Below, piece after piece: positions 2,397 through 14,371 of a stretch of DNA of 20,000 nucleotides. The position numbers and the translations under genes are program-made. The notes below the pieces were generated by a model that was not told the origin of the DNA, did no database searches, and was given only the letters and a program-made list of their open reading frames with translations. The stretch is from the IMG/VR virus record IMGVR_UViG_3300006358_000003. One strand, written 5' to 3'. The DNA comes from an uncultured virus (IMG/VR IMGVR_UViG_3300006358_000003) (taxonomy: Duplodnaviria; Heunggongvirae; Uroviricota; Caudoviricetes). Each line of letters begins with the position of its first letter. The stretch's first letter is position 1.

Positions 2397-3014
2397 CTAT
2401 GCCTGACCTGTCCGCGTCCCAGCCGGATACGGATTGGTGTTCATCATCACTTCGAGGATCTGGTTGTCGTTCAACTCGCTGTAGTTGAACGGGGCGCCGT
2501 TGGCCGGAGCACCGACGATCCTCAGGATGCGGAACGGCAGCGTCGCCGTGTTGGCCGGCGTCGCATCCAGCGCGCATGTGCTGATAAGCGCCGGTGCCAG
2601 CGTCGGAACGCCCGAGGTGCCCGTGAAGATGTCGACGTTCAGGCCGATGCTGCTCTGCGTGATGGCAGTCCCGCGCATCTGCGCCTGGAACGTCATCAGC
2701 GGATCATTGTCCACGAAGCACTCGACCACGGTCGTGCTGGCCAGAGTCGGCGCCGTCCAGCCTGCGAACCACTCGACCCTGCCGGTCGCGGCCGACAGAT
2801 ACCGGCAGCCGCGGAAGATCCCGAGGATCGTCGTGTCGCCCTTGGCGAACAGCCGCACCGTGCCATCGGTGAACAGCTTGCAGGGGTCTCCGAACGCGAT
2901 CTGGGTCGCGTAGTTGTACGCGATGTTGAAACTGCGCTGGGCGTAGTTGGGGGAACCACCAGCGTATTGCCGGCTGGTGGAAAAACCGCTGGGGGCAAGC
3001 GTGTTCGCTGCCAT
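2397..3014 (-). CDS. Putative capsid decoration/cement protein
   Basis: Starts MAANTLAPSGF at 3014 with SD GGAG; 205 aa. Contains IAFGDP and GIFRGCRY...DNDP motifs, typical of the gene directly upstream of this capsid family. Confidence 0.65.
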   Translation of the reverse strand: MAANTLAPSGFSTSRQYAGGSPNYAQRSFNIAYNYATQIAFGDPCKLFTDGTVRLFAKGDTTILGIFRGCRYLSAATGRVEWFAGWTAPTLASTTVVECFVDNDPLMTFQAQMRGTAITQSSIGLNVDIFTGTSGVPTLAPALISTCALDATPANTATLPFRILRIVGAPANGAPFNYSELNDNQILEVMMNTNPYPAGTRTGQA

Positions 3015-3022
3015 GGGTGACT

Positions 3023-3145
3023 CCGCTTCAAGAGCGGCAACCACACGGCGCGTGGGTAGCCTGGGGTTATTCGGGAGGGGAGAGACCGGCGCGGCCTCTC
3101 CCCCTGCTTTCGATGTGCTAAGCCCCCGGCGCGGGGGTTCCAGGC
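3023..3145 (-). promoter_or_regulatory. Structured 5' leader of the capsid operon (multi-hairpin)
   Basis: Hairpins at 3023-3037, 3044-3054, 3077-3103 and 3123-3137, plus an outer pairing GCCTGG 3059-3064 / CCAGGC 3140-3145. Three hairpins share the apex CG-GCG-CG. Confidence 0.6.
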
Positions 3146-3179
3146 AAAGCGCGAGCGCTACATCTGGCGAGCGGCGGCG

Positions 3180-3209
3180 AGTATGCCGTCATTTTGGGCA
3201 GATACGCAA
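3180..3209 (-). promoter_or_regulatory. Sigma70-like promoter for the capsid operon
   Basis: Minus strand TTGCGT (3209-3204), 18-nt spacer, CATACT (3185-3180), in an AT-richer intergenic stretch. Confidence 0.5.
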
Positions 3210-3216
3210 GTATGTT

Positions 3217-3447
3217 TCAACGGCTGTGGCGAAGGGCATTGCTGGGGAAGCTGATCCCTGGCGATGCGGCGGCAGCTAGACGCTCCGCCAGCAGCTTACC
3301 CAGCAGATCATGCAGCCTGGCGATCTCCCGGTCCCGGACCTGGATCGCTTGCCCAGCCAGGTCCAAAGCCGACCGCAGGCACGCAATTCGCGTCTCGTGG
3401 CTGAACGGAACCATGTTCAGCCGCAACTCCTCCTCGGTCTGCATCAA
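3217..3447 (-). CDS. Hypothetical protein
   Basis: 76 aa, helical. ATGA overlap with the upstream stop. Confidence 0.55.
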   Translation of the reverse strand: MMQTEEELRLNMVPFSHETRIACLRSALDLAGQAIQVRDREIARLHDLLGKLLAERLAAAASPGISFPSNALRHSR

Positions 3448-3896
3448 TCGTCCTCCACCATCCGCTCCTGATCCGGCGCCGGTCCGATCGACTTCTTGAT
3501 CCCGCGCCCCATTTGTCTGGACAGCCCGAGCCGCTGCATCTGGCTCGCCACCTGGTGCTTGGCCGCAAACCCGTCCAACTCGCGCGCCTCCTCGGTGATC
3601 TCTTTCGGCCGCTCCATCAGCATCTGGCCGCCGCGCACGATCTCCGCGCCGGCCTGGAGCCGCGTTCCGCTCAGTTCGGGGTGCCGCTCGGCAGGGACCG
3701 GCGTCCAGCCGTTGGCGTCGAGGTTCACGAGGTGCTCGATATCCTCGGACCCCATGAACGTCTTACGCTTCCACTCATAGTGCATGCCGGGCGGAATGCG
3801 GCTGGTATCGATGTCATAGCGGTTGCCGGGCGTTCTGATCTGGAGCCGCCCCGGCAAGGAACGCTGGTCGCTGCGCTGTATCGGTCGCTGGGCCAT
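3444..3896 (-). CDS. Conserved phage head-region protein of unknown function
   Basis: 150 aa with IPPGMHYEWKR, GWTPVPAERHPE and GGQMLMERP. It is typical of the gene between scaffold and capsid genes in such phages. Confidence 0.7.
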   Translation of the reverse strand: MAQRPIQRSDQRSLPGRLQIRTPGNRYDIDTSRIPPGMHYEWKRKTFMGSEDIEHLVNLDANGWTPVPAERHPELSGTRLQAGAEIVRGGQMLMERPKEITEEARELDGFAAKHQVASQMQRLGLSRQMGRGIKKSIGPAPDQERMVEDD

Positions 3897-4108
3897 CAGG
3901 CCGTCTCCTTCCCAGTCAGATACGCCGCGATCTTGCGTGCGGCGGCTATGAAACTGTCTACGTCGCCGACGAGGTTCATGCGCAAAGCCATCTCCATCGC
4001 CTGCGCGCGCGCGTAGTCATCTTGCATCAGAGTCGTGATATGCGGCGCGGCCGGCGTTCTTTCCCATTCGGCCGCCCATTCATTCTTAGGCTCCTGATAA
4101 ATAGCCAT
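3896..4108 (-). CDS. Hypothetical protein
   Basis: 70 aa. TGATG overlaps at both ends. Confidence 0.55.
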   Translation of the reverse strand: MAIYQEPKNEWAAEWERTPAAPHITTLMQDDYARAQAMEMALRMNLVGDVDSFIAAARKIAAYLTGKETA

Positions 4109-5019
4109 CAGTTCAACCTCCCCTGGCTTCTGAGCTGCGCCTTGAGCGCCGCGTATTTCCGATACCGCCCTGGCACCAGAACCCCATTCACCATCTGGTC
4201 TTCGATCGGCGTATCGCCCATCGTGTCGTCCGCTGCCTCGCGCTCTTCGGCCGTCAGCCGCACCTCGCCGGCCCGCGGCATCCCACCACCAGCCCGACGC
4301 GACACCGGCAACGCACCGCCGTTCACCTCTCTACGGCGCGGCGCCGGATCCTCGTCCGCCTCCGTCTGCCGCTGCTGGCGTCCACCGCCCAGCCTGGAGT
4401 CGATGTGGTCGAAGTAGGCATCGCTATCGACCGCAATGCCTTCGGCCGCTGCATCGTAGTGCGCCGCGGCCACCTTCGCCCGGAACCGCTCGCTGGTCTT
4501 GAACTCGGGATGATCCTCGATCCACTGCCGCTGCCGTGGCGAGTACTGCGCCAGGTCTACCCCACCGCTCTGCTGCCGCGGCGTCGGCGCTTGCTTCGCC
4601 TGCTCGACCGCGATCTTCAGCCATTCCTTCTTCTGCTGCACTAGCGAGATCTGGCTTTCCGCCCGGGCCAGCGCCCTGTAGACCTTGCCGGCCTCAGCGT
4701 AGTTGCCGTCCGCGTTCAGTTGCGCGATCTGCGCCTCGAGCGCGACTGCCTCTGCCTCAGTCGCAGCGAGCGTGGCATCGAGCGACTGCTCCTCTGCCAC
4801 CCACCGCTGATCGGTCGCCGTAGCAGCCGAGCCCCTTGCCTCATCCCGCTCACGCTCTGCTCGTTGCGCGCGCTCCTGTTCGGCCGCGCGCGCCCGCCGC
4901 TCCTTCGCCAGCAGTTCCCGCAGATCGTCGTCCGACACCGCCTCGTGGCCGTTGCCGTTGGGCTTCGACGCCGCACCTCCTGTGCCAACGTCGTCCTCGT
5001 CGTCGATGTAGCCACTCAT
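4108..5019 (-). CDS. Putative capsid scaffolding protein
   Basis: 303 aa with an acidic N-terminus, a long Ala/Glu/Arg coiled coil and a basic C-terminal helix (VRLTAEERE...KYAALK). SD GGAGGAG. Lies between portal and capsid genes. Confidence 0.6.
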   Translation of the reverse strand: MSGYIDDEDDVGTGGAASKPNGNGHEAVSDDDLRELLAKERRARAAEQERAQRAERERDEARGSAATATDQRWVAEEQSLDATLAATEAEAVALEAQIAQLNADGNYAEAGKVYRALARAESQISLVQQKKEWLKIAVEQAKQAPTPRQQSGGVDLAQYSPRQRQWIEDHPEFKTSERFRAKVAAAHYDAAAEGIAVDSDAYFDHIDSRLGGGRQQRQTEADEDPAPRRREVNGGALPVSRRAGGGMPRAGEVRLTAEEREAADDTMGDTPIEDQMVNGVLVPGRYRKYAALKAQLRSQGRLN

Positions 5020-12927: not shown

Positions 12928-12947
12928 GCATTACCTCTCATTAGGAC

Positions 12948-12977
12948 TTGACACCCTAGGACATGTTGCGGTATGGT
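12948..12977 (+). promoter_or_regulatory. Sigma70-type promoter of the plus-strand operon
   Basis: TTGACA (12948-12953), 18-nt spacer, TATGGT (12972-12977). SD AGGAG at 12990-12994 and ATG at 13002. Confidence 0.7.
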
Positions 12978-13001
12978 TGCGTCGTTAACAGGAGACGACA
13001 G

Positions 13002-13193
13002 ATGGCCAAGACAACTTTCCAATATCGCGACCACGACATCATTCAGATACTGAAGATCAGCCGCTCGCCGCGCTTCGCAAACACCTTGGGATACACGGTC
13101 TATCGCTCTGGCGTTGCGGTTCACTTCCCCAACAGCATGCTTGAGGCAGTCCGTTGGATCGACAAAGCAGCTTGGAACAACACGGGGGCTTAG
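13002..13193 (+). CDS. Small hypothetical protein (63 aa), first gene of the plus-strand operon
   Basis: SD AGGAG; begins MAKTTFQYRDHDII. Confidence 0.7.
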   Translation: MAKTTFQYRDHDIIQILKISRSPRFANTLGYTVYRSGVAVHFPNSMLEAVRWIDKAAWNNTGA

Positions 13194-13228
13194 GCCCCCG
13201 CCTCCACCACCCTCACCAGGAGACGACG

Positions 13229-13390
13229 ATGACCGAGGAACAGATTGAGCGCCGGGTTGAGCGGATGGTTGACCAGCTTGACCGGGAATACCTGTCGTCT
13301 GGCATGACGGCTGACCACTACCAGCAGCGCATGAAGCAGATCGACGACTGGGCTTGGATGCAGAACTACGAGCGCCGGTTGAGCGCATAG
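13229..13390 (+). CDS. Small helical protein (53 aa)
   Basis: SD AGGAG; MTEEQIERRVERMVDQLDREYLSSGMTADHYQQRMKQIDDWA... Confidence 0.7.
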   Translation: MTEEQIERRVERMVDQLDREYLSSGMTADHYQQRMKQIDDWAWMQNYERRLSA

Positions 13391-13403
13391 AGGGAGAACG
13401 AAG

Positions 13404-13958
13404 ATGGCAAGCAACGAATTTGCAGGCAGCCTGTATCGCAACCAAGAAGCCATGGTGGACGCGATTGCGTATGCGTGGCTCGGGAGCGGCGGGATTTGCG
13501 GGGATGCAGAGCGGAAAATCCTGACTGAGATGACCGACGAACAGCTTGCGGCCGAGTGCATCCAGGGTTGGGAGTTGGATCAGCGGTCGGGCGAGAAGGA
13601 ATGGGAAGACCCGGCGGACGAGGACAGCGCCGAGGTTGAGTGCGCTGACAGCCACATGGAGGAGCAGGGTTACGACCGGGAGGATTTGGTCATTGCGTTC
13701 GCCAAGCTGCGGGAGAAGCTGCTTGCGGTGACTGTCGAGCAGTATGCGCCTGACGGGCATGAGCCTCCTGCCAGCGACCTGTTCCGCGCTGATTGTGCGA
13801 CGGTCGAGGAAGCCCGCGCTGTAATCCGGCAACGGATAGGGGTGCATTTCGATAGCCCGGACTGCCGCTGGTACTGCCCCGAGGATGGGGTGATCGAGGC
13901 TTACAACGAGAACGGCCACGCCGGGTGCGGCGGCTACGTCATTCGCGGGGAGGGCTGA
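13404..13958 (+). CDS. Strongly acidic hypothetical protein (184 aa)
   Basis: SD GGGAG. Asp/Glu-rich tracts such as EKEWEDPADEDSAEVE and MEEQGYDRED. Confidence 0.7.
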   Translation: MASNEFAGSLYRNQEAMVDAIAYAWLGSGGICGDAERKILTEMTDEQLAAECIQGWELDQRSGEKEWEDPADEDSAEVECADSHMEEQGYDREDLVIAFAKLREKLLAVTVEQYAPDGHEPPASDLFRADCATVEEARAVIRQRIGVHFDSPDCRWYCPEDGVIEAYNENGHAGCGGYVIRGEG

Positions 13959-13961
13959 CCG

Positions 13962-14174
13962 ATGAGAGCCAAACACCGAGTTATCGAACGCTTCCCAGAC
14001 GCGCGCCTCGTGGCGATTGATTACTGGGAGGATGGTTCTCCGCGCTACCAGCGCGTAGTCACGGGTGGGGAATGGGACACGACAATTCTGGACGTTCACG
14101 ACTGGGATGGTCAGCAGGGCGCGACTGCCGCATGGCGCAGCGCACATTCCTGGTGCAAGAGACACCCGGCATGA
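13962..14174 (+). CDS. Small hypothetical protein (70 aa)
   Basis: SD GGAGG; starts 3 nt after the upstream stop. Confidence 0.65.
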   Translation: MRAKHRVIERFPDARLVAIDYWEDGSPRYQRVVTGGEWDTTILDVHDWDGQQGATAAWRSAHSWCKRHPA

Positions 14175-14371
14175 CCGCGCCCGAGTTCCGTGCTGCGTTG
14201 GGCCGCGTTGGTGAGAGCCAGCGCGGTTTTGCGCGTTTGGTTGGCGTGGACGAGCGCACGGTGCGGCGGTGGGTTGCTGGCGCGGCGGAGGTGCCGCTGT
14301 GGGTGCCGCTGCTGCTCGGGCTGATGGAGCGTTCATCCGACCCTTCCCGCGCCGGGGCCGTGGGCGTCTAG
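14171..14371 (+). CDS. Small XRE/Cro-like HTH protein (Aca-like), last gene of the operon
   Basis: ATGA overlap. MTAPEFRAALGRVGESQRGFARLVGVDERTVRRWVAG is a typical HTH pattern. Confidence 0.8.
   Translation: MTAPEFRAALGRVGESQRGFARLVGVDERTVRRWVAGAAEVPLWVPLLLGLMERSSDPSRAGAVGV

Follow-up and report, generated by a model that had tools for sequence, protein, structure and literature searches.

The window analysed here, a stretch of 20,000 nucleotides, forms the end of a phage genome that is complete at 67,984 nt and bounded by direct terminal repeats; coordinates refer to the window unless the genome (G000:C1) is named. Protein sequence indicates that the phage is related to HTVC023P. On its minus strand, the window carries genes for the large terminase, the portal and GroES, a likely scaffold gene (303 aa, without a family match), a 150-aa gene, a 76-aa ORF, a 205-aa gene and the major capsid gene, and the long late operon extends tens of kb beyond. 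The major capsid protein (1476–2384, minus), Mu gpT-like/Phage_capsid_4 by family match, is 38% identical to the HTVC023P capsid, and identity ranged from 31 to 54% across the capsids of MW202675, HTVC023P, HTVC027P, DSL-LC04, CRP-901, Pag-Yong1 and Caulobacter phage RW. Its gene lies 12 nt downstream of the 205-aa gene (2397–3014, minus; AUG at 3014–3012), which is the first gene of the operon preceded by the leader, and the order GroES, two unnamed genes, a 200-aa gene and capsid is shared. The AlphaFold model of the 205-aa protein reached a pLDDT of 89.8, and the first 10 Foldseek rows obtained with it were all phage capsid-entry chains (Sf11, HFTV1, T1, Pam3, FCWL1), which we take to be decoration proteins. 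Because no row had an E-value of 0.001 or better, the protein is named decoration-like only; its modelled fold makes it likely a capsid decoration (cement) protein.

Upstream of the 205-aa gene, the transcribed minus strand contains the four hairpins that the original prediction had proposed for a capsid-operon leader, three sharing one apex and a fourth over the Shine-Dalgarno sequence (SD), all at the positions claimed. H1 (3123–3137; 6 bp) and H2 (3076–3104; 13 bp, ensemble probability 1.0) are predicted to be stable and present the tip CGCGCCG at −119 and at −79, the latter being the conserved distal position. The start-proximal H3 (3041–3057, core 3044–3054), with the same tip at −38, is metastable and constitutes the predicted ON state. 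The fourth hairpin (3023–3037, minus), found by folding, covers the GG of GGAG (3024–3021), in agreement with the claimed partial occlusion of the SD, and many relatives have, by eye, a similar SD hairpin with differing stems. The A/C mismatch noted in hairpin 2 on the plus strand is a G-U pair in the mRNA, as had been proposed. The shared apex CGCGCCG was indeed identical in the three window hairpins, but the conserved unit turned out to be broader, a C-G-closed five-base loop NCGNY, and the CGC triloop is one variant among the NCGNY tips. A predicted closing helix (3145–3140 with 3064–3059, spanning 3059–3145, minus), present in the MFE fold as well as in the centroid fold, brings H1 and H2 together into a single junction, and a weak 5′ hairpin of uncertain structure (3156–3173, minus) has a CAGAYGUAGCG stretch common only to the window and its two closest relatives (L002 and L003). 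The tip 7-mer alone was not enriched, with 29 occurrences in the window compared to 26.8 ± 5.0 in shuffles. The enrichment is in the arrangement of the leader copies, which lie 41 and 40 nt apart: nowhere else in the 67,984-nt genome, whichever strand is read, do three stem-closed 7-mers of identical sequence fall within 130 nt, and 2 of 40 Markov-simulated single strands had such a triple. The full leader folds modestly better than its shuffles (z = −2.2; 6 of 200 shuffles as good).

Sequence inspection revealed a putative promoter just ahead of the hairpins, consisting of a −35 hexamer TTGCGT (3204–3209, minus) and a −10 hexamer CATACT (3180–3185, minus) separated by 18 bp, a layout common to the near-identical phage L001. 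Similar −10-like elements (CATAGT, CATGTT or GATAGT) were found in L002, L003, L005, L006 and L010, and −35-like hexamers lie 45–50 nt ahead of the distal tip in many relatives (31 matches, 48 leaders). This arrangement would place the transcription start near 3172–3175 and give a leader of about 160 nt with all hairpins inside; the original prediction would have suffered from a start downstream of the hairpins, and the promoter-like site was found upstream instead. An alternative promoter proposed by the scanner (TTGAAA-18-CAAAAT, 3220–3191) is not shared with L001. L001 diverges just upstream of the promoter and is devoid of the 76-aa ORF (3217–3447, minus; no family), whose DNA differs there and which, as variable cargo, separates the 150-aa gene from the promoter. 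The gap between these two (window 3210–3444) is an insertion hotspot ranging from about 90 to over 4,000 nt, filled by small ORFs or tRNAs in L017, L026, L077, L084, L096, L157, L164 and L193.

To address the conservation of the element, relatives were collected by protein, which yielded 196 records, 177 of them with a start codon, and 115 non-redundant leaders of at least 150 nt; 107 of these had an intergenic gap of at least 90 nt or of unknown length, and 8 were short. The general tip, C-N-C-G-N-Y-G, was written down from the first batch of relatives. The 107 leaders contained 149 tip hairpins. The corresponding numbers were 13.5 ± 3.8 for 100 shuffles, 28 for the opposite strand and 19 for coding windows. 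At least one tip hairpin was present in 85 of the 107 leaders, at least two in 54 and none in 22, and seven of the eight short leaders also had no tip. In the 41 leaders fetched after the motif had been set, 48 tip hairpins were found, versus 8 and 9 in the controls. Relative to the AUG, the tips concentrate around −43 and −82, 36–44 nt apart, with extra copies further upstream, and a scan from −3000 to +3150 showed a single peak in the last 150 nt before the AUG (152 tips versus 6–31 in the other bins). The stems contained 49 G-U versus 17 A-C pairs, an excess indicating that pairing is favoured on the mRNA strand.

In alignment A4, composed of 42 freshwater-type leaders selected for having both tips, 84.7% of the cells pair, double changes occur in 14 of 20 pairs, and all six slid registers score lower. 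RNAalifold returned 12 pairs in the same helices, one of them in a shifted register, with double changes in all; the soil-clade MAFFT alignments, which were out of register, were left out of the pair counts. A 28-nt proximal pattern matched 74 viral contigs, 73 of which carry it ahead of the same gene family, and a second tip lies 35–44 nt upstream, outside the pattern itself, in 37 of 40 distinct leaders, one edge artefact having been set aside. On the tree, about 40 of the leaders collected belong to one freshwater clade, so the leader counts are not independent. A covariance model of the freshwater subtype (R1) detected five further freshwater leaders at 59–80 bits, including GenBank MW202675, and matched L089, L022, L063, L008 and L010 more weakly. 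It did not match the window, so the link between the subtypes rests on synteny, tip pattern and position rather than on the model score. When GenBank phages were searched by BLASTN, the window leader had a single match, 38 nt long and at chance level, and the freshwater leader matched only MW202675. The leader is carried by dozens of uncultured soil and freshwater phages, and we consider it very likely, from these comparisons, that the tips, repeated at set intervals ahead of the capsid-operon start codon, mark a conserved RNA leader. A wider regulon was considered and rejected, as no other tip cluster occurred in the genome or before other genes in the fetched flanks.

A search of the window against Rfam 15 gave four weak matches, none over the leader; ten relatives gave tRNAs only, and nine GenBank loci gave Mu-gpT-DE and a tRNA, both at other places. 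We found no description of the leader element in the literature searched, though one of the 10,006 candidates of PMC10690425 may be the leader RNA; the main text of PMC5737381, in its accessible part, mentions neither gpT nor capsid. With no Rfam family above its gathering score over the leader in the window, the ten relatives or the nine loci, and with tips conserved and stems covarying among the relatives, the proposal of a conserved, undescribed cis-regulatory RNA ahead of the capsid genes was supported, including its expectation of a kept apex. By these sequence comparisons, the leader is a real, uncatalogued cis-regulatory RNA.

Folding of the leader suggested two mutually exclusive states. 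In the window, the full-leader MFE keeps H1 and H2 and loses H3, because the 3′ half of H3 pairs with the start-codon region; the resulting OFF helix (3052–3040 with 3006–3018, spanning 3006–3052, minus), which is computed only, lengthens the SD hairpin so that it covers the AUG. When only a 135-nt prefix of the leader is folded, H3 is present. Equivalent helices of 9–10 bp with a G-C to A-U change are predicted in L005 and L111, and L016 and L020 have 8-bp ones; where the tip differs, in L003 and L008, the change is matched just ahead of the AUG. Of 61 two-tip leaders, 39 are predicted to pair their proximal arm with the AUG region (p > 0.5), versus 21.6 when the upstream part was shuffled; for the distal arm the number is 9, which is the chance level (9.0 expected). 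Opening of the start region costs 9.5 kcal/mol compared to 6.95 kcal/mol in shuffles, exceeding the shuffle mean in 52 of the 61 leaders and all eight shuffles in 22. When tip and AUG were excluded, arm-to-spacer pairing scored −4.66 with a leader's own partners and −3.80 with those of others, a difference reached in 0 of 5000 permutations overall and in 15, 112 and 1877 of 5000 for the soil group, the freshwater group and the other lineages, respectively; the leaders are related, and these permutation counts therefore overstate significance. No cognate pairing advantage was seen in the 13 leaders that belong to neither the soil nor the freshwater group. When the proximal hairpin was forced, the mean opening cost fell from 11.2 to 7.3, with a drop of more than 2 in 40 of 66 leaders; that a forced hairpin nearby reduces occlusion is in part inherent in the test. 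All fold energies are nearest-neighbour predictions, and on these the leader is predicted to have two exclusive folds with the OFF state as the ground state in most members. In the subclade of L068, L071, L075, L078 and L086, the proximal hairpin is stable, and it is the distal hairpin region that is predicted to pair with the start region.

Taken together, the folds suggest that the leader is probably a protein-activated translational switch of the capsid operon; that it works specifically as an ON switch for the decoration and capsid genes is our best reading, to which we give about an even chance. Transcription would start from a host-type promoter just ahead of the hairpins, two to four of which, by comparison with relatives, bear a common C(NCGNY)G tip at intervals of about 40 nt. 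The stable distal hairpins are predicted to serve as landing pads for a binder, and the proximal hairpin to fold first during transcription and then to rearrange into the helix burying the SD and AUG, unless captured by a phage-made protein that would likely be multimeric or cooperative. Capture of the proximal hairpin would free the SD and AUG, so that the decoration gene and then the capsid gene would be translated only late in infection. Forcing H3 in the window has a computed cost of 11.7 kcal/mol. A single protein is unlikely to offset that much at equilibrium, and kinetic capture during transcription is assumed for this reason.

We weighed this ON switch against other functions of the leader. 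P22 scaffold autoregulation and the coat operators of RNA phages are cases in which a hairpin near the start codon controls the supply of head proteins by repression, and the original prediction likened the leader to the former. A translational repressor operator of this kind, with surplus decoration, capsid or scaffold protein binding the tips and shutting translation off, would suit the identical repeated tips, given a multimeric structural protein, the location of the proximal tip only ~20 nt from the SD, and the proximal hairpin already stable in the ensemble in 21 of the 61 leaders. However, the unbound fold is already closed in most leaders and formation of the tip hairpin opens the start, so that tip binding would relieve repression; the alternative fold implies that proximal binding switches translation on, and the likely scaffold gene is off this transcript, which together speak against the P22 analogy and leave repression a rather unlikely function. 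A role in transcription or mRNA stability, either like the HK022 put and lambda boxB RNAs, promoter-proximal repeated hairpins with conserved loops that act in antitermination, or as 5′-end protection of an abundant mRNA, is unlikely as well. It is favoured by a distal hairpin that begins within about 10–20 nt of the inferred start in many relatives, by a terminator that often precedes the promoter, and by the tens of kb over which the late operon continues. Yet the absence of any intrinsic terminator in 2900–4200 weakens antitermination, and with it the antiterminator analogy drawn originally; unlike in put and boxB, the loops are of another type and the tips are fixed in position relative to the AUG, and the mutually exclusive anti-AUG helix would be left unexplained. 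The hairpins could also act as a constitutive tuner read by a host factor or the ribosome, with the OFF helix being incidental GC-rich pairing. Consistent with this, the distal arms pair with the spacer almost as well as the proximal ones in the arm-only test (−4.57 versus −4.82), making them a weak control, the anti-AUG helix is 80.7% paired in A4 with little covariation (its score was reached by 50 of 500 shuffles), and the proximal OFF pairing is absent in about a third of the leaders (22 of the 61 with two tips). The shuffle and permutation controls nonetheless favour real occlusion, and the genome-specific tips better fit a phage-encoded reader than one host factor, which makes a tuner of this sort distinctly improbable.

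The genome specificity of the tips also bears on the possibility of an RNA-only switch. Within a genome, two tips agreed at loop positions 1 and 4 in 51 of 78 pairs, compared to a fraction of 0.28 between genomes, and at position 5 in 38 of 61; L008 and L010 are exceptions to this match, each with two tips of differing types (CCCGGCG and CGCGACG). The tetramer N1-C-G-N4 is usually self-complementary, so pairing of one tip with another, in the same mRNA or across two mRNAs, could stabilize the ON hairpin without protein; kissing loops of two CG base pairs occur in retroviral RNA. Such kissing would explain the matching tips within a genome, and it agrees with the complementarity of loop positions 1 and 4, present in 126 of 149 tips where 72 are expected, which is kept equally well within the loop (104 of 122) and between the two tips of a leader (102 of 122). 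In contrast, L020, L022, L034 and L139 have two matching tips unable to pair at positions 1 and 4 either way. A quick tree placed the G-C tip type over several lineages and the C-G type mostly in one freshwater group, which means that the swap between them arose only a few times; we regard a kissing switch as quite improbable. A DNA operator array for a late transcription factor would be compatible with the 36–44-nt spacing, approximately four helical turns, and with the GcrA-like and HTH regulators encoded by the genome, but flanks that change in sequence and keep their pairing, together with the 49 G-U versus 17 A-C pairs on the mRNA strand, make an array of this type very improbable.

If the leader is a protein-activated ON switch, the neighbouring and conserved phage genes are candidates for its reader. 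Our leading candidate, albeit a doubtful one proposed from a correlation, is a conserved 141-aa CCCC zinc-finger protein (CXXC...CXXC; G000:C1:19088–19513, L197:3088–3513, minus), for which no named family or solved relative was found and which could be either the leader binder or a virion part. Homologues were detected in 22 of 31 records, and by profile in 17 of 30, many of these being fragments. All four cysteines were present in 24 homologues, belonging to 18 tip-bearing phages, 5 long-leader phages without a detectable tip and 1 that was unscored, and one further homologue is CCCH; a spurious row (L101) was set aside in this scoring. The CCCC motif was intact in all 18 tip-bearing relatives in which a homologue was found and degenerate in all six short-leader phages with a homologue (L012, L095, L097, L098, L099 and L102), as well as in the tipless L193, although five of those six belong to one distant group of GenBank phages, so that phylogeny confounds the correlation between zinc ligands and tips. 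One record with two tips (G002/L020) had no detectable zinc-finger homologue; it is linear, and its late operon runs off the contig end. The next candidate, still less likely, is the 150-aa protein (3444–3896, minus), which is conserved (127 homologues), has an Arg-rich N-terminus and gave no named fold (best match VIA, Z 3.8); its gene is present also in phages without the leader. A screen of six neighbouring proteins for residues tracking the tip type singled out none of them, neither the scaffold nor the 3444–3896 protein included, with a mean MI of 0.10–0.17 and a clade signal in all. A scan of 78 proteins from the genome revealed no match to Com (PF10122) and no SAM-domain protein.

The system that the leader most resembles is Com-mom of phage Mu. 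According to the accessible part of PMC6483171, Mu Com binds a hairpin adjoining the mom translation-inhibition structure, and this binding is proposed to free the start. As in that account, a C-G-closed, sequence-specific loop lies here beside a structure that hides the start, the tip hairpin competes with the translation-inhibition structure, as judged by folding and comparison only, and a small CCCC zinc-finger protein is a candidate reader. In contrast to the Com loop motif CC(N)2-3GAG given in the same part of that source, the motif here is NCGNY, and it occurs in two to four copies ~40 nt apart; moreover, the target is a capsid operon rather than a DNA-modification gene, no PF10122 match was found in this genome, and the candidate zinc finger is unrelated to Com by sequence. 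By analogy, the leader would work most like Com-mom, and the likeness fails on the protein family and the loop motif.

Other known RNAs showed partial likeness. Mu-gpT-DE RNA (RF03012) is likewise a structured leader of the same phage family and operon, but it lies after the major capsid gene and has another sequence and fold, whereas the present leader is upstream of the capsid genes; the Mu-gpT-DE model had no match in the window, though it matched in L098. That match (L098:3994–4046, CRP-901; 72 bits) is downstream of the major capsid gene, with similar stretches in L094, L096 and L097, and sub-threshold repeated CTGAC look-alikes in HTVC023P, MW202675 and DSL-LC04 suggest that the Mu-gpT-DE family may exceed the Rfam model. 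In the window, the post-capsid gap, where relatives have a terminator and Mu-gpT-DE, is occupied by a 38-codon ORF with its own SD (1334–1450, minus). In CNGG(N) pentaloops such as the Smaug recognition element and HBV SL-alpha, loop bases 1 and 4 pair and the fifth base is extruded, as the accessible part of PMC2275152 describes. The tips share the five-base loop with this family as described there, and the freshwater tips CCGGY fit CNGGN literally. Unlike CNGG(N) loops, the window loop is GCGCC, and what is kept among the present tips is C2-G3 together with the closing C-G pair. With C at loop position 1 and G at position 4, 71 of 149 relatives' tips fit CNGG; the complementarity of positions 1 and 4, based on few independent swaps, is not separable from loop-loop kissing.

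In tailed phages, the timing of late genes is usually ascribed to transcription. Here, a putative host-type promoter directly precedes the capsid genes of a seemingly temperate phage, and timing seems handed to an RNA switch at the start codon. We know of no phage translational activator of this type other than Com-mom. If the ON switch is real, meeting the same design again in a widespread phage group, this time ahead of the capsid genes, would show it to be general, assign a function to an unannotated conserved gene and provide natural variants of a protein-responsive ON switch. More speculatively, and in our estimate doubtfully, widespread environmental tailed phages would gate their capsid genes by a multi-tip RNA switch read by their own undescribed CCCC zinc-finger activator, with lineages co-evolving tip and start-codon sequence, and with lineages that co-transcribe capsid and scaffold having lost both the leader and the zinc ligands. 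This reading would add an independent second system of the Com kind, in control of the main virion shell.

A GcrA-family gene and a divergent Cro/CI-like pair (G000:C1:395–1288 and 2715–3468) suggest a temperate phage of an alphaproteobacterium, and GcrA could act on the late promoters. No integrase was seen among the scanned ORFs of the genome, and no prophage with the decoration gene was found in the genome scans; two capsid matches lay on soil MAG contigs of 62 and 67 kb, which resemble phage contigs swept into bins and give no firm host assignment. An 11-pair G-U-rich hairpin with a motif-fitting tip lies about 90 nt within the gcrA-like gene (G000:C1 near 1196, minus), a single copy that may be due to chance. 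A small plus-strand cassette, whose last gene is HTH, occupies window positions 12942–14371, and a stretch of ~18 nt is present twice in the genome, near G000:C1 21190 and at window 16109, in two different coding regions.
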